Of a DNA stretch of 23,688 nt, positions 3,619-23,211 are shown one piece after another. The stretch is taken from the IMG/VR virus record IMGVR_UViG_2690316345_000009; one strand, written 5' to 3'. The notes below the pieces were generated by a model that was not told the origin of the DNA, searched no databases, and saw only the letters and a list, made by a program, of their open reading frames with translations. Each line of letters begins with the position of its first letter. The stretch's first letter is position 1. Both the position numbers and the translations under genes were made by a program. Source of the DNA: a virus. Its lineage: Duplodnaviria > Heunggongvirae > Uroviricota > Caudoviricetes.

Positions 3619-3622
3619 AAGA

Positions 3623-5391: not shown

Positions 5392-5392
5392 T

Positions 5393-6101: not shown

Positions 6102-6104
6102 AAT

Positions 6105-6308: not shown

Positions 6309-6835
6309 CAGATAAGCTCCACTGTGCAGTGCGGCGCATCCTGCACCCGGCTGATGGCCCAGCGGGCGTCACGCCATAAATCACCGCTGGCTTCCGCCAG
6401 TTCCTCGCCTCGCTTCGCACCGGATGCCGTGGCATCATAGTCCTGGTAACGTTCGTTGAGCATGGCGCGTGCCCAGCAGTAAACCGCGTTGAAATAGTGC
6501 TGAATGCGCTCGCTTTTGCCGTCCAGTTGTTCCGCCGGGACTTCTGCCAGCGAGGCATACCCCAGCATCTGCTGGCGTCTGCGAAACTCATACAGCTCTG
6601 CGTTGACCTCCGAAATTGCCGACAGCGCAACCTGCTTTAAACGCGGCTGCGTCACCGTGCCGTCAGTGCGCATGACACTGCGAAACTCCGACAGGTCCAC
6701 ATCAGGCCAGAACGGCGTATTTCTGATGATTTCCGCCTGTTCCGGTGCCTGTTCTGGCGCAACAAACTTCATGCTGCTTTCTCCTGAAATAAAGGGCGGT
6801 GGACGGGGTTTTGATGTGGCAGTGCCTTTCGCCAC
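6308..6835 (-). CDS. Head completion/stabilisation protein (P2 gpL-like)
   Basis: 175-aa ORF; C-terminal region (...ELYEFRRRQ...DLWRDARWAISRVQDAPHCTVELI) resembles P2 gpL; true start may be the internal MKFVAPEQ... Synteny M-L-X. Confidence 0.8.
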   Translation of the reverse strand: MAKGTATSKPRPPPFISGESSMKFVAPEQAPEQAEIIRNTPFWPDVDLSEFRSVMRTDGTVTQPRLKQVALSAISEVNAELYEFRRRQQMLGYASLAEVPAEQLDGKSERIQHYFNAVYCWARAMLNERYQDYDATASGAKRGEELAEASGDLWRDARWAISRVQDAPHCTVELI

Positions 6836-6867
6836 CCCGTGCCGCCCGTGCGCGGGGGCACGTTCTG

Positions 6868-7518
6868 TCAGCGGCTGTCATTGCGCAGTCTGCGCTCCAA
6901 CTGCTGTTTGTCTTTTTTCACGCCACAGCGGGGATCGAGCTGTAACGCATGGTTGAGATGATTAAGGGCGGAAGCCGGATTGCTTTCACTCAGGACAGCG
7001 CCAATCGCTTTATGCAGACGCGCCCGTGACTGGTCCGGCATATCCAGACCGTCTGTCAGCTCCAGCGTCTGCAGCAACAGATCGGCATCAAAGCCGGTGG
7101 CGGCAAGCATTGCGCTCTGCGCTGCATCTGCCATTTCCTCTGCCAGCACGGTCTGCACGTTGCGGTTACCCAGCGGCATCACCCAGCCATGACGCAGGGC
7201 ATGACGCCCGATCTCCAGCGCCCCGGCATAATCTCCGGCATCAATGCGCCACAGCATCACGTACATCAGCACGTCATCCTGTTGAGCGCCTCCGGCAGCC
7301 AGGACGCCCTCCGCCCAGGCGGCATATTTCGGCAGCAGCTCCACCTTTATTTCCGCTTTTTTCACCGTGGACTGAACGCCCTTGAGACGGCGGCGGTCTT
7401 CCGCCAGTTGCAGCAGCATCAGGTCATAGCCCGACGCGTGGCGAACGCTGCCGCCCTCGCGGGCGGCATGTTCAGCCTGAACGCGCAGGCGATGCTGCCG
7501 TGCGGGACTCAGGCTCAT
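6868..7518 (-). CDS. Terminase small (endonuclease) subunit (P2 gpM-like)
   Basis: 216-aa ORF MSLSPARQHRLRVQAEHAAREGGSVRHASGYDLMLLQLAEDRRRLKG...ELLPKYAAWAEGVL...DDVLMYVMLWRIDAGDYAGALEIGRHAL..., strongly resembling P2 gpM; synteny O-N-M. Confidence 0.85.
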   Translation of the reverse strand: MSLSPARQHRLRVQAEHAAREGGSVRHASGYDLMLLQLAEDRRRLKGVQSTVKKAEIKVELLPKYAAWAEGVLAAGGAQQDDVLMYVMLWRIDAGDYAGALEIGRHALRHGWVMPLGNRNVQTVLAEEMADAAQSAMLAATGFDADLLLQTLELTDGLDMPDQSRARLHKAIGAVLSESNPASALNHLNHALQLDPRCGVKKDKQQLERRLRNDSR

Positions 7519-7521
7519 GAA

Positions 7522-8580
7522 TTACGCTCCGGCTTCTGCTGCGGCGGCGCTGAAGTCGCCAATCTGGATGTTTTCCACAAGTGCGGCGCAGCGGTAGTCC
7601 TCAACCACATAGGCTTCGTTAACGGATTCAAAGTTTTCAATCCGGTCACGTTTCGGGTTGTCGATAACCGAACGGCGGCGGGTGTCCTCCTGCCAGTAAA
7701 TGGACAGGTTATCCAGACGGGTGATCAGCAGCGCATTCGGCGGGAAGAACGGCGCACGCACGGCCTGCAGGCCACCCATGCGTTTCTGACTGATGATCAT
7801 ATCGGCAGCCAGTTTTTCACTGTTTTCCTGCTCTTTGTTGACCAGCGGGAAATACTTGTCAGACAGCAGCTCACGACCACAAATCACCACCAGATCGTCA
7901 TCGTCCTGGTAGACCACGTCGATAAGCTCATTGACCGCATCCATCACCACAGCGTCCAGGTTGGCATATTCGCCACCTTTCCCGACTTTCACCGCACCCG
8001 GTGTGGTTTCACCGCCCGAGGTGGTGCTGCCCATGACGTGATCCGGTGCATCCTCACGGATTTTCTGCAGCCAGCCTTTGTTCACATCCTGCAGCAGCGG
8101 GTTTTCGCTACGGTTAGAGGTTTTCGCACGCTTCACGCCGTTAAAGCCGATCATGATGCGGTCCAGTGCCTGACGTTTCACGATGGCGTTACGGATACGC
8201 ACCTGGAAATCCTGAAACTTCGCCCACAGGTCCAGCTTCGCGTAGGTCAGCACCGTGTCAAAGTTGGTCTGTTCGCATTTGTATTCCACATCGACCATCA
8301 GCGTCGGATCGACAGGTTCACGCTCTTTCGCGGTGGTGTCAGTGGTTCCGGCAATGGTGCTGCCAACACCCAGCCCCAGCAGCTGACCGGACTGCTCAGT
8401 CACTGGCGTGACGTTAATCAGCGTCAGGAAAGCGGCGGACTGCTGGATCTGGTCTTCCAGCGTCTGCTGCACAGACGGCTCTACAGTGAACTTGCTGGAC
8501 AGTTCTTCAACTGCCACACCGTTCAGACGTGCCAGTTGCTGCAGGTAAGCGTTAAAAGCAAAGCGGGTATTCTTCTTCAT
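7522..8580 (-). CDS. Major capsid protein (P2 gpN-like)
   Basis: 352-aa ORF MKKNTRFAFNAYLQQLARLNGV...; size and sequence pattern of P2-family major capsid precursor; between scaffold and terminase small subunit. Confidence 0.9.
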   Translation of the reverse strand: MKKNTRFAFNAYLQQLARLNGVAVEELSSKFTVEPSVQQTLEDQIQQSAAFLTLINVTPVTEQSGQLLGLGVGSTIAGTTDTTAKEREPVDPTLMVDVEYKCEQTNFDTVLTYAKLDLWAKFQDFQVRIRNAIVKRQALDRIMIGFNGVKRAKTSNRSENPLLQDVNKGWLQKIREDAPDHVMGSTTSGGETTPGAVKVGKGGEYANLDAVVMDAVNELIDVVYQDDDDLVVICGRELLSDKYFPLVNKEQENSEKLAADMIISQKRMGGLQAVRAPFFPPNALLITRLDNLSIYWQEDTRRRSVIDNPKRDRIENFESVNEAYVVEDYRCAALVENIQIGDFSAAAAEAGA

Positions 8581-8596
8581 CAGGTTTTGTGCTCCA

Positions 8597-9430
8597 TCAG
8601 CAATTGGTCAGAGTGTCAGCGGGGGCGTTACCGCCTGTTGCACGCTGGCGGTAGTCCTGGCGGCTGTCTTCATGACTCAGCTTATTCACCAGTTCGTTAA
8701 AGGCGGTTTGCTGCTCCTGCAGAGCAGTCTCCAGCTCAGACAGGCGTTCTTCCTGCTCAGACAGGGATTTTTCGGTGCGTGCGCTCAGGTTCTGCTGCTC
8801 AGTGGCGACCAGCTCCACGGCCTTATGTACATCAGAGAACCGGGCGTCATCGGACTGCTCTTTTTTGGTAAACAGCGCCGTGACACGGGCAAACAGGGAC
8901 GGCTTGTCCTCCTGGATTTCTTCCAGTTCGATCACCGTTTCCTCTGCAGCGGTAAAAAGATTGGCGGGATTCTGCTTGCGGTTTGCCAGCGGGTTATGGG
9001 CTGCACTGGCGCTGAATGTCAGCATTTCAGTGCCCAGACTGGCAGGGTCATCAGTGGCCGCCAGGCCGACCAGGTAGGCTTTGCCCGTATCAGCAAACTT
9101 CGGGCTGACTTCCATAGAGGTGAATAATTTCTGGCCTTTTTTCACCAGCTCCACCAGGGACTCCGTTGGCTCAACGTCGGCATACAGCGCCATCTTGCCC
9201 GCCAGCGGACCTTCCGTGATTTCTTCAGCAAACAGCGCCGTCACCTTGCCGTAGCGATTAAAGGTGCTGTCCGGCAGATAAGACTTGATGTGCTCAAGGT
9301 TAATCAGCGCGGTATACACCGCCGGGTTGTAGCTGGCTGCCATCTGTTCCAGCCATTCACGCTGGATTTCACGTCCGTCGGTAGTGGCACCTTCCACCCC
9401 GATGCGAAAACGCTTTGCTTTCACTGTCAT
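8597..9430 (-). CDS. Capsid scaffolding protein (P2 gpO-like)
   Basis: 277-aa ORF with N-terminal protease-like region and acidic, coiled-coil-rich C-terminus (EQEERLSELETALQEQQTAFNELV); first gene transcribed leftward from the divergent late-promoter region. Confidence 0.85.
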   Translation of the reverse strand: MTVKAKRFRIGVEGATTDGREIQREWLEQMAASYNPAVYTALINLEHIKSYLPDSTFNRYGKVTALFAEEITEGPLAGKMALYADVEPTESLVELVKKGQKLFTSMEVSPKFADTGKAYLVGLAATDDPASLGTEMLTFSASAAHNPLANRKQNPANLFTAAEETVIELEEIQEDKPSLFARVTALFTKKEQSDDARFSDVHKAVELVATEQQNLSARTEKSLSEQEERLSELETALQEQQTAFNELVNKLSHEDSRQDYRQRATGGNAPADTLTNC

Positions 9431-9572: not shown

Positions 9573-11339
9573 ATGAACACCACACTGACACCCGCAGATC
9601 TCGATCCCCGTCGGCAGGCCATGCTGCTGTACTTTCAGGGATACCGCGTAGCCCGCATTGCTGAAATGCTGGGCGAGAAAGTTGCAACCGTTCACAGCTG
9701 GAAAAAACGCGACAAGTGGGGTGACTATGGGCCGCTGGATCAGATGCAGCTCACCACCGCCGCACGCTACTGCCAGCTCATTATGAAGGAGCACAAAGAA
9801 GGGAAAGATTTCAAAGAGATTGACCTGCTGGCGCGCCAGTCGGAGCGCCACGCGCGGATCGGCAAGTTTAACAATGGCGGCAACGAAGCCGACTTAAACC
9901 CTAACGTCGCCAACCGCAACAAAGGCCCGCGCCGTCAGCCGGAAAAGAATGTTTTCACCGATGAGCAGATTGAGAAGCTGGAAGAAATCTTCCATTCCTC
10001 CATGTTCAACTACCAGCGCCACTGGTGGGAAGCCGGAAAAGCTAACCGCATCCGCAACCTGCTGAAGTCACGCCAGATCGGCGCGACCTTTTACTTTGCC
10101 CGTGAAGCCCTGATTGACGCCCTGCTTACCGGACGTAACCAGATTTTCCTTTCTGCCAGTAAGGCACAGGCTCACGTCTTTAAGCAGTACATCATCGACT
10201 TCGCCAAAGAAGTCGAGGTGGAGCTGAAAGGTGATCCGATGGTGCTTCCTAACGGGGCCACGCTGTATTTCCTCGGCACCAATGCCCGCACGGCCCAGAG
10301 TTACCACGGCAACCTGTATCTGGATGAATATTTCTGGATACCGAAATTCCAGGAGCTGCGCAAAGTGGCTTCCGGTATGGCTATTCACAAAAAATGGCGA
10401 CAAACCTATTTTTCCACGCCATCCAGCCTGACACACAGTGCTTATCCGTTCTGGTCCGGTGCGCTGTTTAACCGTGGGCGCAACAAAGCCGATAAGGTGG
10501 ACATCGACCTGTCCCACAACAATCTGGCCCCCGGCCTGCTGTGCGCAGACGGGCAATACCGCCAGATAGTCACCGTGGAAGATGCGGTGCGCGGCGGCTG
10601 TAACCTGTTCGACCTCGACCAGCTACGCATGGAGTACAGCCCGGACGAATACCAGAACCTGCTGATGTGCGAGTTCGTGGACGATCTCGCGTCCGTGTTC
10701 CCGCTCAGCGAACTGCAGGCGTGCATGGTGGACAGTTGGGAAGTCTGGACCGACTTTCATGCACTGGCCCTGCGCCCGTTTGGCTGGCGCGAGGTGTGGA
10801 TCGGTTATGACCCGGCAAAAGGTACGCAGAATGGCGACAGCGCCGGATGCGTGGTGGTGGCACCGCCAGCCGTGCCAGGCGGTAAGTTTCGCATTCTTGA
10901 GCGTCACCAGTGGCGCGGGATGGACTTCCGCGCCCAGGCTGATGCAATCAAAAAACTGACCGAGCAGTACAACGTGACCTACATCGGCATCGACTCGACA
11001 GGTGTCGGCCACGGGGTTTACGAGAACGTGAAAGCGTTTTTTCCAGCCGTCCGGGAGTTTGTCTACAACCCCAACGTTAAAAACGCCCTGGTACTCAAGG
11101 CCTACGACATTATCAGTCACCGTCGTCTGGAGTTTGACGCCGGACACACCGACATAGCGCAGTCATTTATGGCAATCCGTCGCGCCACCACCGCCAGCGG
11201 CAACCGCCCAACCTATGAAGCCAGCCGCAGCGAAGAAGCCAGCCATGCCGATCTGGCCTGGGCAACAATGCACGCACTGTTTAACGAACCGCTGCAGGGC
11301 GAGTCCGCCAATACCAGCAATATTGTGGAGATTTTTTGA
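9573..11339 (+). CDS. Terminase large (ATPase) subunit (P2 gpP-like)
   Basis: 588-aa ORF MNTTLTPADLDPRRQAMLLYFQGYRVARIAEMLGEKVATVHSWKKRDKWGDY...; length and sequence characteristic of P2-family terminase ATPase; followed by the overlapping portal gene. Confidence 0.9.
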   Translation: MNTTLTPADLDPRRQAMLLYFQGYRVARIAEMLGEKVATVHSWKKRDKWGDYGPLDQMQLTTAARYCQLIMKEHKEGKDFKEIDLLARQSERHARIGKFNNGGNEADLNPNVANRNKGPRRQPEKNVFTDEQIEKLEEIFHSSMFNYQRHWWEAGKANRIRNLLKSRQIGATFYFAREALIDALLTGRNQIFLSASKAQAHVFKQYIIDFAKEVEVELKGDPMVLPNGATLYFLGTNARTAQSYHGNLYLDEYFWIPKFQELRKVASGMAIHKKWRQTYFSTPSSLTHSAYPFWSGALFNRGRNKADKVDIDLSHNNLAPGLLCADGQYRQIVTVEDAVRGGCNLFDLDQLRMEYSPDEYQNLLMCEFVDDLASVFPLSELQACMVDSWEVWTDFHALALRPFGWREVWIGYDPAKGTQNGDSAGCVVVAPPAVPGGKFRILERHQWRGMDFRAQADAIKKLTEQYNVTYIGIDSTGVGHGVYENVKAFFPAVREFVYNPNVKNALVLKAYDIISHRRLEFDAGHTDIAQSFMAIRRATTASGNRPTYEASRSEEASHADLAWATMHALFNEPLQGESANTSNIVEIF

Positions 11340-12364
11340 TGGGAAAGAGTAAAAAAAACCGCGTAGCGGCGATGAATCAGATCCAGCATAAAAGCCAGAC
11401 TTCAGCCGAAGCATTCAGCTTCGGCGATCCCGTTCCTGTTCTGGACCGCCGTGAACTGCTGGACTATGTGGAATGCGTACAGACAGATCGATGGTATGAG
11501 CCGCCAGTGAGTTTTGACGGGCTGGCGCGCACCTTTCGCGCCGCCGTGCATCACAGCTCACCGATTGCGGTGAAATGCAATATTCTGACCAGTACCTACA
11601 TCCCTCACCCGCTGCTCAGCCAGCAGGCTTTTTCACGTTTTGTGCAGGACTATCTGGTATTTGGTAACGCCTACCTGGAGAAACGCACGAACCGCTTCGG
11701 TGAAGTTATCGCCCTTGAGCCTGCTCTGGCAAAATACACCCGACGCGGGTTAGACCTGGATACCTACTGGTTTGTGCAATACGGTATGACAACCCAGCCG
11801 TATCAGTTCACGAAAGGCAGCATTTTTCATCTGATGGAACCGGACATCAACCAGGAGATCTACGGCCTGCCAGGTTATCTTTCTGCCATTCCGTCAGCCC
11901 TGCTCAACGAGTCCGCCACGCTGTTCCGCCGGAAGTATTACATTAACGGCAGTCATGCAGGCTTCATCATGTACATGACCGATGCCGCGCAGAACCAGGA
12001 GGATGTGAACAACCTCCGCAATGCGATGAAAAGCGCCAAAGGCCCTGGCAACTTCCGCAACCTGTTTATGTACTCGCCTAACGGCAAAAAGGACGGGCTT
12101 CAGATCATCCCGTTGTCAGAAGTCGCGGCGAAGGATGAATTTCTTAACATCAAGAACGTGAGTCGGGATGACATGATGGCAGCGCATCGTGTGCCGCCAC
12201 AAATGATGGGGATAATGCCTAATAATGTTGGGGGATTTGGGGATGTAGAAAAAGCCAGTAAGGTATTTGTGAAAAATGAATTATTACCATTACAAAAAAG
12301 AATGAAAGAATTTAATCATTGGAGCGGTGAAGAAATTATAAAATTCGAGAGATATCAAATTTAG
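11339..12364 (+). CDS. Portal protein (P2 gpQ-like)
   Basis: Track ORF 11336..12364 begins at a TTG; the adjacent ATG gives MGKSKKNRVAAMNQIQHKSQTSAEAFSFGDPVPV...; ~341 aa, P2 gpQ-like; start overlaps the terminase stop. Confidence 0.9.
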   Translation: MGKSKKNRVAAMNQIQHKSQTSAEAFSFGDPVPVLDRRELLDYVECVQTDRWYEPPVSFDGLARTFRAAVHHSSPIAVKCNILTSTYIPHPLLSQQAFSRFVQDYLVFGNAYLEKRTNRFGEVIALEPALAKYTRRGLDLDTYWFVQYGMTTQPYQFTKGSIFHLMEPDINQEIYGLPGYLSAIPSALLNESATLFRRKYYINGSHAGFIMYMTDAAQNQEDVNNLRNAMKSAKGPGNFRNLFMYSPNGKKDGLQIIPLSEVAAKDEFLNIKNVSRDDMMAAHRVPPQMMGIMPNNVGGFGDVEKASKVFVKNELLPLQKRMKEFNHWSGEEIIKFERYQI

Positions 12365-12370
12365 CAAAGT

Positions 12371-12386
12371 GCCTCTAAAAGAGGCG
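12371..12386. terminator. Short hairpin between the convergent portal and DprA-like genes (possible bidirectional terminator)
   Basis: GCCTCT-AAAA-GAGGC sits exactly between the two stop codons (TAG at ~12362-12364 on plus, TAA at ~12389-12391 on minus). Stem is short and flanking T-runs are weak. Confidence 0.4.
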
Positions 12387-12388
12387 CT

Positions 12389-13363
12389 TTAAATCAAGTC
12401 TAATGTACTCTGTTTCCCTGGCCATTTTAGCTCTAACAAATACTCCCGGGACTCATTTATGATCATAATCACATCATCATAATCCCGTTTTGTTTTTAGC
12501 GCTCTAGCCATGTTGCTCTTAACTAAATCAACTGTTCCCTCACAATTAAGATTAAGCGGATTATTAGGTAGGTGAGGTACAACCGCAAACACTGGTCTTT
12601 TCGCCTTATTTGCAAACTCAGCTTGAGTTATCGTTCCGCTATTTAACGCAGCCTCGATTAAAATTGAACCTGCAGATAATCCAACTTGTATCCGATTTCT
12701 TTGTACAAATGATTGTTTCTGGGCCGGCCGACCCATAGGATACTCAGAAATCCATGCACCACCTTTATCCAGAATCTCTTGAGCAAGTCGACTGTTTTGC
12801 TTCGGCTTAGCCTCCTCAAGACCATGCGCCAAGACAGCAATGGTTTTTCCTTTTGCCTGTAACGTTGCCTTGTGGGCATTCGCATCAGTGCCTATTGCTA
12901 ACCCACTTACAACAATATACCCAGCAGACACTATCTGATTAGTGATCCGCCTCGTTATTTCTTCCCCTGCAGGGGAGGTATCACGGGATCCTACAATTGC
13001 GACACCCGGCAATTCTTTGAGTATACTTTTATCCCCTTTTATGTAGAGAATTGATGGTGGATTAGGAGTAAAAGCTAAACTAAGAGGATAGAATTCAGAC
13101 CCATATGGTATTAGCTCCACACCATTAACATGGTGGTTCTCCAATTCAGCGTTCGCTATTAGAAAATCAGTCTCAGATATTTTATCTTTTAGAAACCCGT
13201 GGCTATTAACCATCTCAGTTAAGTCGCGTATATCACGAATAACATCAAAATCGATAAGCTCAAAGAATTTTAATACACTTTGATCAGATGCTAGCTTCCC
13301 GATTTGAATAGCTAATCCAAGTGTATTTTTTAATTCTTCTGAGTGCACTTTGCTACTCCTCAT
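12389..13363 (-). CDS. DprA/Smf-like (Rossmann, SLOG-type) domain protein; candidate ShosA-like component
   Basis: 324-aa ORF with DprA-family core motifs GVAIVGSRDTSPAGEE...GYIVVSGLAIGTDANAHKATL...IAVLAHGL; overlaps the upstream PRTase gene by ~11 nt on the same strand; AT-rich relative to the phage core. Confidence 0.6.
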   Translation of the reverse strand: MRSSKVHSEELKNTLGLAIQIGKLASDQSVLKFFELIDFDVIRDIRDLTEMVNSHGFLKDKISETDFLIANAELENHHVNGVELIPYGSEFYPLSLAFTPNPPSILYIKGDKSILKELPGVAIVGSRDTSPAGEEITRRITNQIVSAGYIVVSGLAIGTDANAHKATLQAKGKTIAVLAHGLEEAKPKQNSRLAQEILDKGGAWISEYPMGRPAQKQSFVQRNRIQVGLSAGSILIEAALNSGTITQAEFANKAKRPVFAVVPHLPNNPLNLNCEGTVDLVKSNMARALKTKRDYDDVIMIINESREYLLELKWPGKQSTLDLI

Positions 13364-13928
13364 AGTTTGCAGTTTCTAGCAGAGCTAATGGCATTATAAC
13401 TCCAGCTCCTGCAGACTCCAGTAAATAAAAACACGCAGACAAACTACCGCCTGTTGTTTTAACATCATCTAGTAGTAACACATTTCGCCCCATGAGGTTA
13501 CCACCCCTAACTCTGATACTAGACATGTGACCAGTAATTGAGCGATCTCCTCCTTCACGATGTGCGCTAGGAACAGTGCGTGTTCTTTCCAAACAGCAAT
13601 CAACAATGCCCCGACGGTGAACATTTACGATTCGCTCGGCGACCTCAATCAAAGCCGGTGAAATTCTGCCTTCAGTGTGAGACGGGACAACTGCTATCGA
13701 AAAAGGAGACTCAACAAAACGCCCACCGCCACCTCTGATTACTAACCGCCCAACCTTATCTATAGCTAATCGAGAAAAACGGTTAATGGCCCTTTGATGA
13801 TTACGATTATTTTCATCCTTAAAATCCATCATCTGCCTTGATAGTTCATCGCTATGAGGGTTGCGCTCTCCCAAATGCCAGTAGGGGTGATACAAGCCAC
13901 ACGATGTAATACTTACGGGTAAAAGCAT
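13353..13928 (-). CDS. Phosphoribosyltransferase (PRTase) domain protein; candidate ShosT-like component
   Basis: 191-aa ORF containing the type I PRTase PRPP-binding signature VLLLDDVKTTGGSL; first gene of a two-gene cassette with the DprA-like gene; sits between cos and the portal gene. Confidence 0.6.
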   Translation of the reverse strand: MLLPVSITSCGLYHPYWHLGERNPHSDELSRQMMDFKDENNRNHQRAINRFSRLAIDKVGRLVIRGGGGRFVESPFSIAVVPSHTEGRISPALIEVAERIVNVHRRGIVDCCLERTRTVPSAHREGGDRSITGHMSSIRVRGGNLMGRNVLLLDDVKTTGGSLSACFYLLESAGAGVIMPLALLETANYEE

Positions 13929-14045
13929 TCTTTATTCTCATGTAGTCCTAACTCAAACAATGTTAAGCGAAATGATATTTCATAGACAAACACAAATTTA
14001 AGAATAATCTCAATGATCACATTTTTGATTATGAAACAAAGCCAA

Positions 14046-14077
14046 GAGTTAGCGCGCGCTCGTATCCCCGCCACGCC
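14046..14077 (-). other. Candidate cos site (cohesive-end region) of the P2/186 family
   Basis: Minus strand reads GGCGTGGCGGGGATACGAGCGCGCGCT..., matching the first 13 nt of the 186 cohesive end as I recall it (GGCGTGGCGGGGAAAGCAT) and the flanking GCGCGCT of the P2 left end. Lies in a ~490-bp non-coding gap and is oriented so that the portal gene is on the left-end side, as in P2. Coordinates approximate. Confidence 0.6.
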
Positions 14078-14366
14078 TGCCCGCTTTGTGCAATGGTTTT
14101 CATGCAGGTGCATAACATACGAAAAAGTCCGTCACAACTGGCACGCCTGCGTTACAACGCTCCTCAAACGGTCATGCGATCTCATGCAGCATAGCCATGC
14201 ACTTAGGGGAGAAGTGAATGTTCGTAACCAAATGACCGTTTATATATCGAAGCAGAAGAACTAAGAAAGCTTGAGGTGTGCTTTGAACGTTAAACATAGT
14301 ATGTAAATGGTTTATTTTCCCGAGATACTCACTCGGGCCCAATCTGCTTATCGTCTTCATAAAATC

Positions 14367-14396
14367 AAACGTTCAGCCAAGAATATCTGAACGTTT
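14367..14396 (-). terminator. 10-bp-stem hairpin downstream of the HNH gene (candidate terminator of the ATPase-HNH operon)
   Basis: AAACGTTCAG-(10 nt loop)-CTGAACGTTT, ~30 nt past the HNH gene stop; followed on the minus strand by GATTTTATG. Loop is long for a canonical intrinsic terminator. Confidence 0.4.
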
Positions 14397-14422
14397 AGCT
14401 TTTATGGGCAAAACTGTATTAA

Positions 14423-15169
14423 CTAGCGAATTGACGGTAACGTCAGGCTCAAAGATTCATCATGAAGTTCCTGCATATAATCTGACCATAATCCTTGCAT
14501 CTGCATGGTTTCTTTCAGATAAGAATATTCGACTGAACGATGAAGCATTGTTGCTGATACTGCAGAAAAGGGAGATGTTTTCTGACACTCACCTAATATT
14601 GCCTCGACTAGATTCATAAGAATGTTTTTACGTCTAGTACTTGGATTCTCATTAAACCAATTAAGTTTTTCTATTGCGTCATCAATACTGCTATCTATAA
14701 GTTCCCCTGCTTTACAACGCGGTATAAACTTGTGCTCCCTGTGATTAAAGTTTAAAACATCCACTGTTGTTTTACCTAAATCAGTTTTACCTTTAATACG
14801 ATACCCTATCATATAAAGGTGTTCTGACGGTAAATCGTTGCATGGATTTATTATAGGATTGAGTACAACATTATGGCGTTGTTTTGAACCATTACAGTGA
14901 CGGCATGAAGGAAGGAGATTTTCCCATCTAATAACATCATCAGGGAAATTTTTTTTATCCTTAAAATGCTCAATTTCATTATAGGTGCTAGCCTCTTCAA
15001 GCTTGACCTCACAAAATGCACATTTGCCATTACTTAATTTTAGACATGCCGATTTTACTTCCGGATGATGCCAAACAGATGTTCCATTATCTTTAAACTC
15101 CTGAGTTAAAGATAGAAGATCAACACGAGTAAAAAAATCAGGAATAAAGTTCCGTTCAAGCTTAATCAT
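14423..15169 (-). CDS. HNH endonuclease-domain protein; candidate Septu PtuB-like nuclease
   Basis: 248-aa ORF with HNH-type arrangement CAFCEVKL...EIEHFKDKK...WENLLPSCRHCNGSK; start 1 nt after the stop of the upstream ATPase gene; strongly AT-rich. Confidence 0.7.
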   Translation of the reverse strand: MIKLERNFIPDFFTRVDLLSLTQEFKDNGTSVWHHPEVKSACLKLSNGKCAFCEVKLEEASTYNEIEHFKDKKNFPDDVIRWENLLPSCRHCNGSKQRHNVVLNPIINPCNDLPSEHLYMIGYRIKGKTDLGKTTVDVLNFNHREHKFIPRCKAGELIDSSIDDAIEKLNWFNENPSTRRKNILMNLVEAILGECQKTSPFSAVSATMLHRSVEYSYLKETMQMQGLWSDYMQELHDESLSLTLPSIR

Positions 15170-15170
15170 T

Positions 15171-16352
15171 TTACTCTTCTCTCTCTCGAATTGACATCAG
15201 GCTTATTTTAAGAGATTTACGAAGAATACTGTTTTGATGCAATGCCATATCCAAATAATCATAAATTTCTTTCGCCTTGTCGAAATTTTCTTCATCAACA
15301 AAACGTTCGAAATTATCAAGTAGTTCTTGTAGTTTTCTACTGAGAGTGCTTTCCATCCCCATTACATCTAACAAAACCTCTTCAACTGTCCAGGCAGAAT
15401 AACCCAAGCCATTTTCAGGAAGTTCTTTTACTCTCACTGTGCCATCATTATCTGGTACTAACGCAATGATCTGATGTGGTTTTGCATTCTGTACTACATG
15501 TGGGCTGTGAGTTGTGACAATAAATTGTGCTGATGGAAATGTTGTCGTAAGGGCTTCAGTGATTCTTGCCTGCCACTCAGGATGCAAATGAAGCTCAATT
15601 TCATCGATAAGAATCACTCCATCAAATTCTTGGGCGTAAATATCTTTCTCCGGATAACGAAGCTCGATCTCTTTAATAATACCGAGAAGGAGACTCATAC
15701 ATGATTTGAATCCCGAGGACAGATATTCATACCATATTACCCCGGTCGGGGTATTTACAAAAATATCGTAAGATTTAGGATCGACGCGATTGTAAGAAAA
15801 CTGAGGGTTTAAAATTGATATACACTCCCTTGCAAGATGTATATTTTTTATCGTATTAGGACCGTAACCATTATCTACTTTTTCAAACAAATCCCTCTTA
15901 GCAAACCAATCCTTGATATCATGTAAATTGACACCTAAATTAATCTGTTGCGAAACAGCATCATCGGATAGTGATTTATCTGCATTCAACGCCTCAAGAT
16001 GTTTATAATCAAAGTTACGTAATATTTCAAATTTTATTAGTTTCCTCTTATCAAATCCGTTATTATTAAAGTTGTGAATTGTTTCTGTAGGCAAATGAAC
16101 GTTAACATCTAATACTGAATTAAAGTTAACAGAATTATCTTCTATTATTAGACTAACACTTCCTGTTTCAGAAGTGACATTGCGTTTTATTCTATTAGTG
16201 TATCCATGAAGAAAAGGAAAGGAGGCAGCAAGCAAGAGTGTGGATTTTCCAACTCCGTTAGGCCCACATATAATATTCATGTCAGGCCTAAATTTTACGT
16301 ACAGGGACTTTATCCCCCCGATACCGTTTATAGTTAGCTCAGTCAGTTTCAT
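15171..16352 (-). CDS. ABC-type (AAA_15/21-like) ATPase; candidate Septu PtuA-like component
   Basis: Track ORF 15171..16373 starts at a GTG; likely start is the in-frame ATG with upstream AAGGAAA giving MKLTELTINGIGG.... Walker A GPNGVGKST, ABC-signature-like LSSGFK, Walker B VILIDEIELHLHP, H-loop TTHSP. No TOPRIM or other nuclease domain fused. Confidence 0.7.
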   Translation of the reverse strand: MKLTELTINGIGGIKSLYVKFRPDMNIICGPNGVGKSTLLLAASFPFLHGYTNRIKRNVTSETGSVSLIIEDNSVNFNSVLDVNVHLPTETIHNFNNNGFDKRKLIKFEILRNFDYKHLEALNADKSLSDDAVSQQINLGVNLHDIKDWFAKRDLFEKVDNGYGPNTIKNIHLARECISILNPQFSYNRVDPKSYDIFVNTPTGVIWYEYLSSGFKSCMSLLLGIIKEIELRYPEKDIYAQEFDGVILIDEIELHLHPEWQARITEALTTTFPSAQFIVTTHSPHVVQNAKPHQIIALVPDNDGTVRVKELPENGLGYSAWTVEEVLLDVMGMESTLSRKLQELLDNFERFVDEENFDKAKEIYDYLDMALHQNSILRKSLKISLMSIREREE

Positions 16353-16587
16353 ATATTTCCTTGTAATTTCCACTAACCCACATTCAGGATTAGCTAGATA
16401 CTAAGGAACAAGCCAAGTGTTGTAAATAAAAAATCTTATCTTATATTCGAGTTAGAAAAGTATGTTGCACCCGCTGGTTGAGCAAACAGTACAAAGCTGG
16501 CGGCCATTGAAGATCATGACCGCCATACCTAACGCCTCGCTTCACTCGTTGTTCAACCTTGTTCCCTCTGATAGGATCCTATCGGGA

Positions 16588-16809
16588 TCAACGTTTTAAT
16601 GTAACCTGCTGCATTATTTCCATTACTCGCTTTTTGTCTTCATCCAGTTTTAACCCGCTCAGTTCAACACCATTGGCGCTGCCCTTACGGATACGAATTG
16701 CTGTTTTGGGATACAGAGGGCGCAAATTACGGTAGAGCTCGGATTCAAGGGCTTCCAGTGTGGCCTGGCTAATCTTCTGCTCTTTATCGATCATTATTTC
16801 AATGCGCAT
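16588..16809 (-). CDS. dinI: DinI-family protein
   Basis: 73-aa ORF MRIEIMIDKEQKISQATLEALESELYRNLRPLYPKTAIRIRKGSANGVELSGLKLDEDKKRVMEIMQQ, matching the E. coli DinI pattern; downstream of a LexA-box-like operator. Confidence 0.75.
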   Translation of the reverse strand: MRIEIMIDKEQKISQATLEALESELYRNLRPLYPKTAIRIRKGSANGVELSGLKLDEDKKRVMEIMQQVTLKR

Positions 16810-16821
16810 ACAGATTTCCCT

Positions 16822-17010
16822 TTAACTGGTAACGTCCATTGATCGGCTGTATTCATGGCTGCGAATTTTCGCCATCAACTCATCTGTCAGTTCGGACACC
16901 CACTGGATAGCCAGCCGCTTTTCTTCGTCGCTGCACTCACTAGCCGCTACAAGCTTGATAAAAAAATCAATACGCTGGAGCTTCAATGACTCCAAAAGAT
17001 AGTCCTGCAT
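16822..17010 (-). CDS. Small hypothetical protein, first gene of the putative SOS-regulated operon (possible Tum-like antirepressor)
   Basis: Within track ORF 16822..17187 the ATG preceded by AGGAGGGAAG gives a 62-aa product MQDYLLESLKLQRIDFFIKLVAASECSDEEKRLAIQWVSELTDELMAKIRSHEYSRSMDVTS. The Tum analogy is positional only. Confidence 0.4.
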   Translation of the reverse strand: MQDYLLESLKLQRIDFFIKLVAASECSDEEKRLAIQWVSELTDELMAKIRSHEYSRSMDVTS

Positions 17011-17056
17011 CTTCCCTCCTATCATTACACGGATACACAAATACTGTACATATACC

Positions 17057-17076
17057 CACTGTTTATACAAACAGTA
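17057..17076. promoter_or_regulatory. LexA (SOS) box-like operator
   Basis: CACTGTTTATACAAACAGTA contains a perfect CTGT-N8-ACAG palindrome, ~40-50 nt upstream of the small ORF start. A degenerate second box (ACTGTACATATACCCAC) lies just beside it. Coordinates approximate. Confidence 0.6.
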
Positions 17077-17168
17077 TAGTAGGAAAGAAAAAATGTAAAA
17101 CTCTTTTTTGTCAGTCAATTGGATGTACTGACTCCAGTCAATAAAGCACGAAATGTTAAACAGCATCC

Positions 17169-19562
17169 TTAGTACCATCGACGCCATTTGTCATCTTCCT
17201 GCAGCCTCTGTTTACGGTAAAAAATACGTAAACCGGCACCGGATGGAATGCTGCCGCCACGCAGAAGCAAATCAATCTCAGATACACTACCCTCAAACCC
17301 TCTGGCAGTCAGTTCTGCCTCAAGCTGCAGGCGCTGCTGCTCCGAAATACTCTGTATGTATGCTTTTTTTCGCTTCGGTTTTACCAGTCTCAACCTGGCT
17401 GTCAGCTCCCGCCGTTCCTTCTGGCCCATGTTGTGGAGATATTCCTGCAGCTCCTTCTCATCCATGGTTTTAATATCGGGTAAATCCCCCCCTGATTTGT
17501 TCATATTTTCAACAGGGGGACAGTTATTGCCACGAGTCCAAGGGGCGCAAGCGCCCTGGTCGGCTACCGCCTCCTGAACGTCAACGGCTTTACGAACCAT
17601 TTTCCACTTCACTGCATGAGTGCAGATCTTGCCCTCTGCAATGGGTGACCAGATGCCATAAATACGAATGCCGTGATCGCCATAGGCGGTCGGCTCTTCG
17701 TTAATTTCATAAGCAGTTCTGATGAGGTGATATTTGCGGGGAACCAGTACGCCGCCCTGCTTCATGATGTAAGTGGCAAAACAACCAGCATCAGCAGCAG
17801 CCAGGATTGCATCAAGGCGCGGGTTATCCAGTACCGGCGCACCTGCTTTTTTGTCCCCCTGTTGCCTTGCCGCCTGACCAGCCAGCAATCGCAGTTCACG
17901 GTAAGCCTGACGCCCCGGAATGCCAAAGAAGCGGAATTGCTGAACACGATGCAGAGACGCCCAGGCATTAACGTATTCAGCGTTATCACGCAGGGATTTA
18001 CCCGTTTCCTTACTGATCTCGCCAGCCAGACCACGCCCGTCAATATTCTTACTGATATATTTCGCAATGTAGCTTGTCGGCGTTCCTTTGCGCGGGTTTA
18101 TCAGCTCAGACTTAAAGCGTGGCCCCGTGTTATTGCCCAGCTCCTCGCGGTCTTCACGGATGGCAAACTTACGCAACAATGCAGTAATGGCGCGGCGGTC
18201 TTTTTTGCGCATGAAACACAACAGGTGCCAGTGAACTGTGCCGTCATGATGCGGCTCAGCCACCCGCACGCCATACCAGCGCAACCCGGCTTTGTGCATA
18301 GCCTTACGAAATGCAGCAAACATGCCGACCAGATAATCGCTGCTTTGTCTTACTGTCGCGTTGGTCCAGGTCGGGTTTGGCCTGCCGTTATTTAGCGTGG
18401 AATGGAAACGTGACGGACAGGTGATGGTGTAGAAAACGGCGCAGTCACCGCGCATTTCCGCGATAAGCTCCAGACCTTTAACACAGGCCATCATCTCATT
18501 GCGGCGATGCGCAGGGTTGCTGCTGCTGGCGTTTACCACGTCTTCCATATCCAGCGTGTCGCCGTCTTCGTTCACCAGTTCATGAGAACGGAAAAACTCC
18601 AGCGACTTACGGCGCTGCTCACGTTTATGCATCACGGCTTCATAGCTGACATAGGGAGATGCTTTTTTGCTGACCAGGCAAACAGCACGCAACTGCTCTT
18701 CCCGCCATTCGCTACGCATCTTCCATAATTTCCGATACCACCAGTCGGCGCACAACATACGCGCCAGCGAACCCGGAATAAGTTCATAGGGCACGGGTTT
18801 ACGGCGGTTTCTTTTCCGGCGGAGTTGCTCAAACGCAGGCGGTATGACATCCAGTCGCAGGGTTTCCGCCGCCACCTTTTCCCATGTCTTGCGGATTTCT
18901 TCTGGCTTAACGTCATCGGTGGCATACAAATCACCACAAGCGACCTCAAGACACATGCTCATATGCGCTGCTACCAGGGTGGACAGGCGTTTTACCTGAT
19001 CCTGACTCATTTCAGGCAGGATCAGCAGGCCGTCCAGCCCTTCATGGCTTGCCATAAAGCGAAAAGAAGTGGATAGCTGACTGTCGCGTACATGCTCCAG
19101 TCTTTCCAGACATGGCTTAATCGTCTCACGCAAATAGCGGGAATAAGCCTTTGGCCTGCCCAGACTGCTGAAGTATTCAATACGTTGCATCAGCGGCTTG
19201 CTGATATGGGAAGGCAGGGCGTTGACGTCAGCCAGAATGACCATGTCTGGATTAAAACGCTGCTGCTCATGCGCCAGCTTTGCCCGGCTAATGAGCTTAT
19301 CCTGCTCCATTTCGCGCTGGACAGGATCACGGGATTCATTAAAGAAATAACGCTCCCAGACCTGCTCACTCAGTGCCTCGCGGCGCAGTTGTTCCTGCTC
19401 GTTATCGGCAGCATACAGAGTGATCAGGTTTGAAAGTGCAGACTCCGGCGCAAATTCCGCCGGGTCCAGATAAGGGTTAATGGCCTTTTTCGGGCCGTTC
19501 CATGAAAATGATGCAGCGGCCTCGTTAAAGCCGCTAGAGTTGCTCATATCGTCATGACTCAT
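17169..19562 (-). CDS. Replication initiation endonuclease (P2 gpA-like rolling-circle initiator)
   Basis: 797-aa ORF; size and position (between the Dam/TraR operon and the SOS module) match P2/186 gene A; start overlaps the dam stop (ATGA). Confidence 0.85.
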
Positions 19563-20416
19563 ACACGCACCTCGTACACAGCAGAACTATCTACGCCACG
19601 CGAAGGATCAAATCCCACCCAGCAGCGCGCCCCGGAAACAGCAATGATTTCTGTTGCAGATTTACTATCACCAGCTGCCACACCGATGCTGCGTTTTGCC
19701 TTGATGTAGTGGTGAGTAAAATTGCGATACAGCGAACGGATCAGGGATGTGTCACTGTTAGAAACAATGACCGGATGTCCTTCTGATGACCGATGTTCAA
19801 GAACGGATGCCAGGTGATACTGGTCATCTTCAGTGAAACCATCAGTGTGATAGCCGGAAAACGTACCGTCATACGGCGGATCGCAATACACCACATCCCC
19901 CGCCTTCAACATCGCCAGCGTTTCATCAAAGCTGGCGCAGATAAACGTTGCCCGCTGGGCTTTCTCTGCAAATGCGCGAATTTCTTTTTCAGGGAAATAC
20001 GGATTTTTATAATTACCGTAGGGAATGTTGAAATACCCGCTCTTGTTATAGCGACATAACCCACGGTAACCATGACGATTGAGATACAGAAAATATACCG
20101 CTTTCATGAAATCAGTAATTTCAGTGGAGTAATTAAACTCCTGCCTTATGTTGTAATAAGCCACCTCCCTGTTTGCTTCCTCAAATAAAGCTCTGGCACG
20201 AGATATAAACGCCTCACAATCAGCAGCAACCTTTTTATAGAGGTTGATTAAATCAGGATTAATATCCGCAACAAGATAGCTGGGGTAATCCGTCTCCATC
20301 ATCACTGCACAGGAACCCGCGAAAGGTTCAACCAGTCGCGGGCCAGCAGGAAGATGCTTTTTCAGTTCGGACATTATGGCGGTTTTATTTCCCGCCCATT
20401 TCAGGATGGTGCTCAT
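19559..20416 (-). CDS. dam: DNA adenine methyltransferase (Dam-like, N6-adenine, probably GATC-specific)
   Basis: Track ORF 19559..20476; likely start is internal [23 protein letters not shown].... Contains the catalytic DPPY motif ([11 protein letters not shown]) and an N-terminal AdoMet-binding region (EPFAGSCAV). No adjacent restriction endonuclease gene. Confidence 0.85.
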
Positions 20417-20640
20417 ACAGCACCTCCGTTGTAATGTTTGCCTTTCAGCTCTGCGATTTCCTGACAGGTAATGCAAAGCTGCACACCCGGAATGGCACGA
20501 CGGCGTGCTGGCGGAATTGGCGCTTCACACTCAACGCAAAGCACGCGGGACACGCCCGGCGTTTTGGCACGGGCAGCACGGATATGACGTTGGCGTTCTT
20601 CTTCAACGCGCTGCTGGACGAGATCCATTGCATCAGCCAT
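20413..20640 (-). CDS. TraR/DksA-family C4 zinc-finger protein
   Basis: 75-aa ORF with CVECEAPIPPARRRAIPGVQLCITCQ, the characteristic Cys4 finger of TraR/DksA-like phage proteins; translationally coupled to neighbours on both sides. Confidence 0.7.
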   Translation of the reverse strand: MADAMDLVQQRVEEERQRHIRAARAKTPGVSRVLCVECEAPIPPARRRAIPGVQLCITCQEIAELKGKHYNGGAV

Positions 20641-20873
20641 CAGTGGATCTCCTGCGCTTCGTTCTGGATTGCTTCAGCAGTCACACGCAGCAGTTCTGCC
20701 GCTTCGACGTGGTTTAACTGGCGGGATGTGATATGACACGACAGGCGATCAAGGCGAGCTGCCATTGCTTCAGCCCTTGCCCGGCGTTCTTCCAGACGAG
20801 CCTCTGTCAGTAAAATATTAAGCCCTGCGTCATCCGGTCCGGTTTTAGTCGTGAGGGTATCAATATTACGCAT
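20640..20873 (-). CDS. Hypothetical protein (early/replication operon)
   Basis: Track ORF 20640..20879 starts at a TTG; the ATG two codons in is preceded by GGAG. ~77 aa, Ala/Arg/Glu-rich helical sequence; no recognisable motif. Confidence 0.45.
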   Translation of the reverse strand: MRNIDTLTTKTGPDDAGLNILLTEARLEERRARAEAMAARLDRLSCHITSRQLNHVEAAELLRVTAEAIQNEAQEIH

Positions 20874-20940
20874 AATCAATTCTCCTGAATTTAGATAAAG
20901 GGATGCCCGGCGGGTTTACGCCATTAATTTCATTAGTTGG

Positions 20941-21282
20941 TTAATTCGGCATGGTTAGCCGTCTGGGAAATAAGCTCACCACTGCACGAAAATGATTCAT
21001 TGCTTTAATCAGCTCCCGCTTTTCGTCAGTGGTCAGCTCATTAATGCTGATGCTATGACGTTCAGCTGGAATTTTTGCCATAAAGAATATGGCAGCCAGT
21101 GCCCGTTTATTTTGTTCATTATTGATATCCCGTGGATCACGCATATCTTTAATAAACCGCTCAAGCTCTGACTCAATATTCAGGCCAAAAACTTTCGCCC
21201 TTAACTCCGCAATGTGATTAAGTCCATTCAGGCGTTCACCGGGGCTTAATGGAACAGTTGCTGCAGCGCCATTAATTGCCAT
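20941..21282 (-). CDS. Hypothetical protein (early region)
   Basis: 113-aa ORF in the correct orientation for the early operon; no motif recognised. Confidence 0.45.
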   Translation of the reverse strand: MAINGAAATVPLSPGERLNGLNHIAELRAKVFGLNIESELERFIKDMRDPRDINNEQNKRALAAIFFMAKIPAERHSISINELTTDEKRELIKAMNHFRAVVSLFPRRLTMPN

Positions 21283-21304
21283 ACTTCATATCCCCCAAAC
21301 GCAG

Positions 21305-21529
21305 CTATCGTTCTTTGTTCTTACGGTAACGCTCAAGAGGAGATACATTTTTTCGTATCGTCTCTTTAACCTGCTCTCCCCGTAAAAACGTCCCATCCTT
21401 TAACGTGAAAAAGTAACTGCCATCGCCCGACAATGACGGATAGCAACAGAGCAAATCATCTTCAGGTACTGAATAACTCTCCCCTCTGTAACGAAACTGA
21501 TAAACCATTTCACTTTCTGCCGCATACAT
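21305..21529 (-). CDS. Hypothetical small protein (uncertain; overlaps alternative ORF)
   Basis: 74-aa ORF; overlaps ORF 21400..21726 by ~130 nt in another frame, so at most one model is fully correct. Confidence 0.25.
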   Translation of the reverse strand: MYAAESEMVYQFRYRGESYSVPEDDLLCCYPSLSGDGSYFFTLKDGTFLRGEQVKETIRKNVSPLERYRKNKER

Positions 21530-21726
21530 TTGGACTTTCTCCGTTTCCTCGTGGTCAATTCAGACAGCAATTCATCTTGTGAATGACATGGATGCCAGCG
21601 TTTTCCATCCTCACCCGTGATCCAGCCGTGACCGTAGTGCATTGCCGGGCTTTGTTTTACCAGCAGCGATGCAAATGATGGTTCTTTCGACAGCATAAGC
21701 ACCTCACAGCAAACCGAATGAAGCAC
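21400..21726 (-). CDS. Hypothetical protein downstream of the CII-like gene (uncertain start)
   Basis: 108-aa ORF starting near the CII-like gene stop; occupies the position where 186 has fil/dhr-type early genes. Cys/His-rich; no motif recognised. Confidence 0.3.
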   Translation of the reverse strand: MLHSVCCEVLMLSKEPSFASLLVKQSPAMHYGHGWITGEDGKRWHPCHSQDELLSELTTRKRRKSKCMRQKVKWFISFVTEGRVIQYLKMICSVAIRHCRAMAVTFSR

Positions 21727-22213
21727 CGAGGCCAGTTACGGTATCAACCGCACTCGCCATCGCAGGGTTAGCCTGTAAACGGGCCTGCAATGAAACAGCA
21801 GCCAGCGCCATCAGTCGTGTTACAGAGTTAATGCTGCTGATGGCATCACGACGACCTGCACTGGTTTTTACATCGCCAGATACCGCACCTGCAGCAACAC
21901 GCCCGATCTCTGCGGTTGCACTCATGACGTAATGTGGCAGTTTCTCTTTTGCCACCTCATTAATCGGCACACATGGCAGGCAGTGAATCTGTGCCAGAAA
22001 ACCATCTACCAGTGTTGAGTCTTCTGTCAGATCAGTAAGCAACCAAATTTCTGGTGCGGTTAATAAATGAGGTTGAGCTGGATTCAGCTTGTTCCGCAGA
22101 ATCTGCACATTCATACCTGCACGTTCTGCCAGTTGCACCAAGTTGTGGCGCAATGCAAATGCACGACAGGCTTCATCAAAATGTGGATGTTTGGAAACTT
22201 GGTAATCAAACAT
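21704..22213 (-). CDS. cII: CII-like transcriptional activator (phage 186 CII family)
   Basis: Track ORF 21704..22222; from the internal start [82 protein letters not shown]... closely resembles 186 CII as I recall it. Confidence 0.8.
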
Positions 22214-22277
22214 GGTTTTCAACTCCGAACTTATCGCAAAATCGAACTCAGCGTCTTATTGCGAAAATAGACGTCTA

Positions 22278-22481
22278 TTAAGCAGACAAAGCATCAACAG
22301 TCAGAGCAGCCAGGTTAATCATTACCTTTTCACGTTTTTTGTCTTTACGAAGACGATGACGAGGTAGTCGGCCATCAGCCAACATGTCGTTAATCGTATC
22401 AATAGAAAGGCCAGTCAGTTCGCTATAACGTTCGATTGTGACATGTGGTGTATTCAGAGTAATTGAAATGTTAGGTGTCAT
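22278..22481 (-). CDS. Apl/Cox-like small HTH protein (excisionase / lytic-promoter-side repressor)
   Basis: 67-aa basic ORF, first gene of the leftward early operon immediately upstream of the CII-like gene, divergent from the repressor gene; HTH-like core [25 protein letters not shown]. Confidence 0.6.
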
Positions 22482-22626
22482 AAGGCAACATTCCTTCTAG
22501 ATATGGCTTGTGGCGAGCCGTTGTTTGTCGTGATTAGTAGTGAAGGCTCCAAAAGAACACTTCTGGTTCAACTTTAAGATCGCTTTTGGAATCTGTCAAC
22601 GAATTTTGGATTTCTTTGGAGGACTT
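22482..22626. promoter_or_regulatory. Lysis-lysogeny switch region between divergent Apl-like and CI-like genes
   Basis: ~145-bp gap separating the divergently oriented Apl-like and CI-like starts; by analogy with 186 (pR/pL) and P2 (Pe/Pc) expected to hold face-to-face promoters and operators. Individual promoter hexamers not confidently assigned. Confidence 0.5.
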
Positions 22627-23196: not shown

Positions 23197-23211
23197 TACC
23201 GGGAGGAAACT

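Follow-up and report, generated by a model that had tools for sequence, protein, structure and literature searches.

How do two unrelated defense cassettes come to lie on either side of the packaging site of a single prophage, and should they be regarded as one acquisition or as two? The question is raised by IMG/VR record IMGVR_UViG_2690316345_000009, a stretch of 23,688 nucleotides (the window, by which we mean this whole stretch at its full length) that is most of a P2/186/Fels-2-like (Peduoviridae) temperate prophage of Escherichia coli. Between the end of the portal gene Q (12364) and the end of the replication gene A (17169), two gene pairs are encoded on the minus strand: a phosphoribosyltransferase (PRTase)-like protein and a DprA-like protein on the portal side (the Q side), and an ATPase and an HNH nuclease on the replication side (the A side), with the cohesive-end site, cos, in the noncoding gap between them. 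It is very likely, in our judgment, that the region is a cos-proximal defense hotspot in which an essential cos island divides two independently refilled slots, occupied here by unrelated ShosTA-like and Septu systems.

The distribution of the two pairs bears out an original prediction, made from the sequence of the window, that they were acquired independently and are not a four-gene unit. Among 5426 complete E. coli genomes, ShosTA was present in 23 and Septu in 4, and none had both; the 27 single-cassette carriers indicate that the two pairs form no obligate unit. Avoidance of one system by the other was considered as a reason for the lack of joint carriers and rejected, since only ~0.07 co-occurrences are expected by chance, given 23 and 4 carriers among the ~1270 genomes that carry the backbone. 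The partners found across cos are varied on both sides. A PtuB identical to that of the window lies in an A-side arm of 7.1 kb (99.9-99.97% identity to the window), and this arm is joined to at least eight Q-side cargos (including a Cap4-nuclease with a 552-amino-acid [aa] protein, a 79-aa protein with Vpar_1526, AIPR, DUF4145, a 585-aa reverse transcriptase [RT], a 304-aa protein with HIRAN, and ShosTA); along the late-gene arms, identity of these prophages to the window is only 93-98%. An identical ShosA, in turn, is found with at least seven A-side contents: DUF8087, a 273-aa plus a 172-aa protein, two different KAP NTPases, a 299-aa protein, DUF2971, and Septu.

The same two-sided layout is seen in Fels-2, RE-2010, and several Klebsiella phages. 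Such double occupancy is frequent: of 43 species-representative relatives that keep the order Q-cos-A, 37/43 have more than 600 bp on the Q side, 24/43 have more than 1300 bp on the A side, and 19/43 exceed both lengths; the occupied intervals have a G+C fraction (GC) of 0.32-0.47. Ten further E. coli loci had the Q side filled in every case and the A side in half, with no system spanning cos. P2, 186, and PsP3 are different in that their Q side is empty, amounting to 167-176 bp with a terminator, whereas in the lineage of the window the Q side is the one most often filled (37/43 and 10/10). The region is permissive for cargo, as had been proposed; the accompanying idea of one permissive region has to be given up, since the conserved and essential cos island makes two slots of it.

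The junctions between the two sides have been mapped, and they fall at cos. The window is itself chimeric: 11501-14000 is 100% identical to a prophage of E2348/69, and 14046-23582 is 99.96% identical to a prophage of OkiPb01711, while the reciprocal arms of these two prophages are only ~75-97% identical to the window. In a three-way alignment the switch of parent lies within 14046-14086, and in the Septu-arm relatives all homology boundaries lie at 14046-14052. The adjoining A-side portion of the cos island, 14078-14203, exists as nine haplotypes that differ at 11-30 positions (9-24%), save two pairs that are one position apart; each haplotype tracks the A-side cargo, and none tracks the Q-side cargo. 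Together, the boundaries at 14046-14052 and the A-side-linked haplotypes place every left/right join inside the 41-bp cos core, a junction that is shared by at least 14 distinct left/right combinations. We suggest that a Q-side arm of the E2348/69 type and an A-side arm of the OkiPb01711 type recombined inside this core to give the window. The cos site interrupts neither operon: ShosTA, together with the 117 bp upstream of it, is confined to the Q side, and Septu, with its downstream hairpin, to the A side. In our reading each cassette is an operon complete in itself, which the prophage would express to shut out other phages. As the original prediction had it, one cassette would lie at each terminus of the packaged DNA, an arrangement dictated by geometry if the cut is made at this cos.

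How the joins were made is a separate matter. One option is ordinary homologous recombination in the sole identical tract between the cargos, and it is quite possible, if somewhat short of probable, that RecA-type exchange within the 41 bp accounts for all of the cos joins with no role for terminase or cohesive ends. Between nonhomologous cargos, no stretch other than the core is perfectly identical, and the 9-24% difference among haplotypes in the adjoining 126 bp would force homologous exchange into it; a comparison with the prophage of strain EC50 gives a short identical block, from 14051 to ~17500, as for a local double crossover. A tract of 41 bp is, however, near the minimal efficient substrate for RecA-dependent exchange, and at least 14 combinations share the junction in spite of this. 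In most Septu-arm relatives, moreover, the identical block reaches at least 7-9.5 kb from cos and the other arm is 4-5% diverged throughout. So long an identical arm resembles a whole-arm exchange, as if cutting at cos supplied one "crossover" free.

The other option is that a packaging cut at cos, combined with a single crossover elsewhere between co-resident relatives, would leave a DNA molecule with ends from different parents; in a variant, cos-to-cos packaging across two co-resident relatives would create a mixed cos junction upon circularization. Both mechanisms predict the same outcome and are inseparable from sequence, but the long near-clonal A-side arm, found on many diverged late arms, favors cos cutting as we read the alignments. 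The integrase and its att site were considered as the second junction of a whole-arm exchange and set aside; in the window, homology to the OkiPb01711 arm stops at 23582 because an IS4 end is inserted there.

In lambda-type genetics the vegetative map is linear with its ends at cos, and cos cutting stimulates recombination. The present case is similar in that prophage markers that face each other across cos assort as if unlinked, with one near-clonal arm and one diverged arm. Unlike lambda, P2 reportedly packages from circular monomers and recombines poorly, and the logic of lambda is applied here by analogy. That the packaging site itself is the shuffling device, rather than generic homologous recombination, is an idea that we advance tentatively and with some doubt. 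It would work because terminase cuts every genome at cos and because members of the clade have an identical 19-nt cohesive end; the slots, placed at the termini of virion DNA, would be the least-linked loci of the phage and would yield the maximal number of new pairings of defense systems. The footprint expected of such a device would comprise the at least 14 combinations joined in the core, the cargo-linked A-side haplotypes, and the single near-clonal arm with its many diverged counterparts.

There is very little chance that the four genes form one co-evolved, coupled defense island around cos, in which ShosA, RecA, DinI, and Septu, for instance, might cooperate. The cassettes are adjacent, co-oriented, and both AT-rich, and the exact combination recurs in at least two assemblies, L024 and L026, with 99.95-99.98% identity over 12.7 kb. 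These two, however, are near-clonal copies of the same prophage and provide no independent co-occurrence (L024, a public contig of 23,652 bp, is a near twin of the window at 99.98% identity over the 12.7 kb). Each pair is a known stand-alone system, each has at least seven different partners across cos, the complete genomes that carry either pair have ShosTA only (23) or Septu only (4), and the cassettes differ in GC (0.415 versus 0.363).

The placement of cos itself rests on homology to characterized sites. The minus-strand sequence of the window is GCGGGCA-GGCGTGGCGGGGATACGAG-CGCGCGC, to be compared with GTGGGCA-GGCGTGGCGGGGAAAGCAT-TGCGCGC at the annotated cos of 186 and PsP3 and with GCGGGCG-GGCGAGGCGGGGAAAGCAC-TGCGCGC at that of P2. 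The central 19-mer has 14 of 19 positions in common with 186, including the first 13, and the GCGGGC and GCGCGC flanks are both kept; it is, in other words, a 19-nt G+C-rich sequence homologous to GGCG(A/T)GGCGGGGAAAGCA(C/T) with both flanks, as in cos sites of the P2/186 type. A single exact copy of the 19-mer per locus was found in 77 relatives (67/118 of the first fetched loci and 10/10 of the further loci) that span Escherichia, Salmonella (Fels-2 and RE-2010), Klebsiella, Enterobacter, Citrobacter, Pantoea, and Tatumella. Across 79 phage records, an island of ~150 bp (14051-14203) is the sole conserved portion of the gap. We take this island to be cos, with cleavage predicted by homology at 14058/14059 and 14077/14078. 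These results agree closely with the candidate site at ~14046-14077, in a gap of ~490 bp, that had been proposed beforehand; the gap measures 494 bp. The CATGCA/TGCAT motifs of the A-side portion are invariant across Fels-2, RE-2010, and the Klebsiella phages and may be terminase-binding sites. The nonmotif positions of the same portion reassort freely relative to the terminase genes. Three small mechanical open reading frames (ORFs) in the gap, of 66, 83, and 62 aa, were rejected, as they are unconserved and went uncalled by gene callers in all but one of the relatives examined.

Base composition points the same way. As had been anticipated, both cassettes are AT-rich and lie on one strand in the stated order, gene calls, GC, and GC at third codon positions (GC3) being in agreement. 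The profile across 12.3-16.6 kb is not uniform (Table 1): the four cargo genes have GC3 values of 0.27-0.36, as compared with 0.57-0.70 for P, Q, N, and A, and 0/311 windows of 1.68 kb outside 12365-17168 have a GC below 0.399. The view that the AT-rich island was gained once as a single block, with the inner "cos" a chance match or relic and the functional cos elsewhere, can draw on a coarse profile in which the whole of 12.0-17.0 kb lies under the backbone level, but it is highly improbable, since at fine scale the 158-bp island has a GC of 0.551, it is the only gap sequence conserved in the 79 records, its 19-mer and GCGGGC/GCGCGC flanks align with the experimentally annotated cos of 186, PsP3, and P2, the 19-mer is invariant across genera and present once per locus, and the Q-A position is the canonical one for cos in the P2 family.

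The Q-side pair appears to be a ShosTA-like toxin-antitoxin or abortive-infection system made up of a ComF-like PRTase and a DprA-like antitoxin. The antitoxin gene matches Pfam DNA_processg_A (1.4e-60), the PADLOC ShosA model (2.8e-70), and the solved ShosA structure in the PDB (9vzo, 1.7e-29), and its product is identical to WP_001324531 of E2348/69. ShosT is described as a phosphoribosyl pyrophosphate (PRPP)-dependent toxin that disturbs purine metabolism, and ShosA as a DprA-like antitoxin that binds single-stranded DNA and RecA, the two bringing about abortive infection (PMC11961720, PMC12961424). As in ShosTA, the PRTase-like gene of the window is directly upstream of the DprA-like gene and overlaps it (by 11 nt), and both PADLOC models match. 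Unlike the solved system, the putative toxin is short (191 aa), ComF-like, and without a detectable match to the solved ShosT chains in the PDB, even at E<=10. It scores 18.6 bits with Pfam Pribosyltran, under the cut-off of 26.3, and 1e-5 with ComF, far under the cut-off of that family. ShosT is the weakest of the cassette assignments, and we describe the protein as a short ComF-like PRTase. The ORF is unannotated by RefSeq/PGAP in E2348/69 and other carriers (L007-L011), and is overlooked by some other gene callers as well; catalogs built from annotation, including Table S5A of Rousset et al., consequently show a lone DprA gene. The 117-bp region 5' of the toxin gene extends to 13 bp from the cohesive-end sequence, is 100% identical to the E2348/69 prophage, and is unrelated in prophages with other Q-side cargo. 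At the other end of the cassette, a hairpin (12371-12385) occupies the 24-bp spacer between the convergent stops of Q and ShosA; flanked by an A-run and, on its opposite side, a T-run, it probably terminates transcription in both directions.

The A-side pair, by its gene identities, is a type I Septu system, comprising the PtuA ATPase and the PtuB HNH nuclease. Septu is a complex of an ATPase with an HNH nuclease, and type I (PtuA/PtuB) was reportedly described by Doron and colleagues in 2018. PtuA matches the PADLOC PtuA model (1.2e-151), Pfam AAA_21 (1.1e-18), AAA_15, and SMC_N, and the PDB PtuA 8ee4 (9.3e-23); it has a Walker A motif, GPNGVGKS, at residue 30 and a Walker B motif, VILIDE, at residue 246. 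PtuB matches the PADLOC PtuB model (1.6e-95), NCBIfam PtuB (2e-14), and, weakly, Pfam HNH, and it has the zinc-finger HNH motif C50xxC, H68, C89xxC, H98; a phmmer search of PtuB against the PDB gave no match. One nucleotide separates the stop of PtuA from the start of PtuB in a tight operon. Like type I Septu, the cassette is a two-gene operon, with neither an RT nor a noncoding RNA (ncRNA), in which the gene for a Walker A/B ATPase precedes that for an HNH zinc-finger nuclease. Unlike the solved PtuA (8ee4, 465 aa), the PtuA of the window is compact at 393 aa. Features of retron I-A were not found: there is no RT ORF between DinI and cos, and an Rfam scan of 12000-17400 returned no retron ncRNA and no other known RNA family. 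The hairpin at 14367-14396, which the terminator scan missed since its loop is longer than 8 nt, is probably the terminator of the Septu operon, ahead of cos.

Two observations on relatives concern PtuA-type proteins. A prophage of Leclercia adecarboxylata (L085) has, on the A side of cos, two ORFs of the sizes of PtuA and PtuB in the window (393 and 248 aa), together with a different Q-side cargo; this match in size suggests that the same Septu cassette may have crossed genera. In L123 (16665-19914) and L125 (16130-19379) the Q-side slot holds a retron-like trio of an RT, a PtuA-like ATPase, and a 227-aa protein, and among these phages PtuA-type effectors can thus be found on both sides of cos.

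The gpQ-gpA interval, with cos inside it, has been published as the P2 defense hotspot, for which 1,650 arrangements were recorded, with more than one system at many loci (Rousset et al. 2022, PMC9122126). The old/tin genes of P2 are its founding example. The window has the position between Q and A, with cos inside and hypervariable, defense-enriched content, and, like the P2 hotspot, it has AT-rich cargo swapped between near-identical phages. It is an ordinary instance of that hotspot, with two catalogued systems, and is in this sense already known: Table S5B of Rousset et al. contains the PtuB of the window verbatim as Septu, and ShosA WP_001324531 is also in their tables. The same work confirmed that a related DprA plus PRTase pair of APEC O1 defends against T7 and lambda (PMC9122126), although that pair is on the A side of a P2-type cos and the pair of the window is on the Q side. 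The discussion of that paper proposes cohesive ends plus a second homologous event as a driver of exchange (PMC9122126), and rapid cargo swapping between phages with identical core genes has been documented (Moura de Sousa et al. 2026, PMC13586616). These papers treat Q-A as one hotspot, whereas here cos separates two independently reassorting slots; in what we read of PMC9122126 and PMC13586616, neither a division of the hotspot at cos nor junctions mapped to the cos core are described.

Since the hotspot, both systems, rapid swapping, and the cohesive-end idea are all published, the window carries small weight as a discovery. What is added is modest, namely evidence from sequence that the hotspot is split by cos into two slots whose contents reassort independently. 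If the two sides are separate loci with independent histories, surveys of the Q-A hotspot should split the interval at cos. The toxin gene absent from RefSeq leaves annotation-based catalogs with a lone DprA for this ShosTA variant. The mapped junctions are a concrete, testable footprint for cos-assisted exchange of defense cargo, and, if cos does act as a shuffler, they would provide the speculation of Rousset et al. (2022) with its first support from sequence.

Several points weigh against the interpretation of the region as two independently refilled defense slots and should be set against it. With ~0.07 joint carriers expected, zero co-occurrence speaks for nonobligate linkage and nothing further. 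The samples of partner cargos were nonrandom, the longest contigs being taken first, and the partner counts are lower bounds that give no frequencies. The ShosT call on the short 191-aa ORF draws on one PADLOC model and the PRPP-loop motif. A scan for consensus promoters gave no standout promoter for either operon, the matches being no better than those in shuffled sequences, and we infer, rather than observe, expression and defense by these exact cassettes in the lysogen. Finally, the prophage may be unpackageable, an IS4 end replacing its sequence exactly where int begins in relatives. Homology to relatives ends at 23582, and the last 106 bp (23583-23688) belong to one end of an IS4 element and match many E. 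coli copies at 100% identity; this insertion adjoins int or has taken its place, and the contig terminates within it.

The remaining features of the window are those of the phage backbone. Its orientation is the reverse of the standard P2 map, and both the late and the early genes of a P2-like phage are present in full. The tail, lysis, and head functions are encoded in 1-9430 on the minus strand, and beyond the cargo the early region continues from gpA to Dam, CII, and CI. In relatives with other Q-side cargos, homology to the window stops at 12298-12348, inside Q. The C-terminal ~20 residues of the portal protein change with the Q-side cargo, being RMKEFNHWSGEEIIKFERYQI here and RLQEINNFIKEGVIEFQEYHF beside AIPR, and the left edge of the Q-side slot must therefore lie inside the portal gene.

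On the right, the cargo is bounded by a backbone operon of SOS type, consisting of a 62-aa ORF and a DinI/Tum-like gene, which carries the same annotation in relatives. A perfect LexA box precedes it and overlaps a promoter-like site, TTTACA-N17-TATACT (17095-17067, minus strand). The GC-rich hairpin at the right edge of the Septu cassette (16498-16525) stands beside a 33-bp patch, at 16527-16561, that is conserved in relatives. The arrangement is like that of p95-tum-orf97 next to cos in phage 186, where a LexA box in the promoter 5' of a DinI/Tum-like gene is followed by a hairpin and then by a cargo gene toward cos; terminator t95a of 186 has the position of the hairpin at 16498-16525, and the LexA-controlled p95 is the analog of the LexA-box promoter of the window. 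Unlike in 186, Septu fills the orf97 position, and a separate weak promoter-like site precedes PtuA. By this analogy, SOS-induced read-through from the LexA-box promoter into Septu is possible.

Table 1. Features of the window and base composition of its parts, in order of position (aa, amino acids)
Feature	Position	Strand	GC	Basis or remark
Late backbone			0.560	
Terminase gene P	9573-11339	+		
Portal gene Q, left anchor of the hotspot	11336-12364	+		Pfam Phage_portal
Q-side cassette	12365-14045		0.415	
Hairpin GCCTCT-AAA-AGAGGC, predicted terminator	12371-12385			Read from sequence; not reported by automated terminator scan
DprA-like gene (ShosA-like DprA-family antitoxin, 324 aa)	12389-13363	-		Pfam, PADLOC, PDB
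PRTase-like gene (ShosT-like PRTase toxin, 191 aa)	13353-13928	-		PADLOC ShosT 3.7e-14; PRPP-loop motif VLLLDDVKTTGGS
Noncoding gap, 494 bp	13929-14422			
Cassette-specific region 5' of ShosT, 117 bp	13929-14045	-		Presumed promoter-bearing
cos island, 158 bp	14046-14203		0.551	
Invariant cos core, 41 bp	14046-14086			Three-way alignment; boundaries in Septu-arm relatives; haplotype linkage
Predicted 19-nt cohesive end GGCGTGGCGGGGATACGAG	14059-14077 (read 14077..14059)	-		Alignment with annotated cos of 186, PsP3, P2
A-side portion of cos island, 126 bp	14078-14203			Repeated CATGCA/TGCAT motifs
A-side cassette	14204-16526		0.363	
Hairpin AAACGTTCAG-N10-CTGAACGTTT, then T-run, predicted terminator	14367-14396	-		Read from sequence
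HNH gene (Septu PtuB, HNH nuclease, 248 aa)	14423-15169	-		PADLOC, NCBIfam, motif
ATPase gene (Septu PtuA, ABC-type ATPase, 393 aa)	15171-16352 (or to 16373)	-		PADLOC, Pfam, PDB, motifs
GC-rich hairpin 3' of DinI-like gene, right edge of Septu cassette	16498-16525	-		Terminator-like site in scan
SOS-type operon, right anchor	16588-17010	-		Pfam DinI 1.3e-17
DinI/Tum-like gene	16588-16809	-		
62-aa ORF	16822-17010	-		
Perfect LexA box CTGTTTATACAAACAG	17059-17074			5' of 62-aa ORF
Replication gene A (gpA)	17169-19562	-	0.528	Pfam Phage_GPA 3.3e-127

Relatives of the prophage have a third variable slot, the interval between CI and int (22000-23500 in the window), where GC is also low. It holds a small YdcA-family gene in the window, a KAP NTPase in E2348/69 (L011, 22488-24954), a SNIPE/T5orf172 nuclease in L120 (7358-9034), and a reverse transcriptase in L124 (6181-8711). 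In the prophage of E. coli EC50 (L107, 9744-27629), most tail and head genes have been lost and the tape-measure and terminase genes persist as partial pseudogenes; Q, both cargo slots, cos, and the early region are intact.

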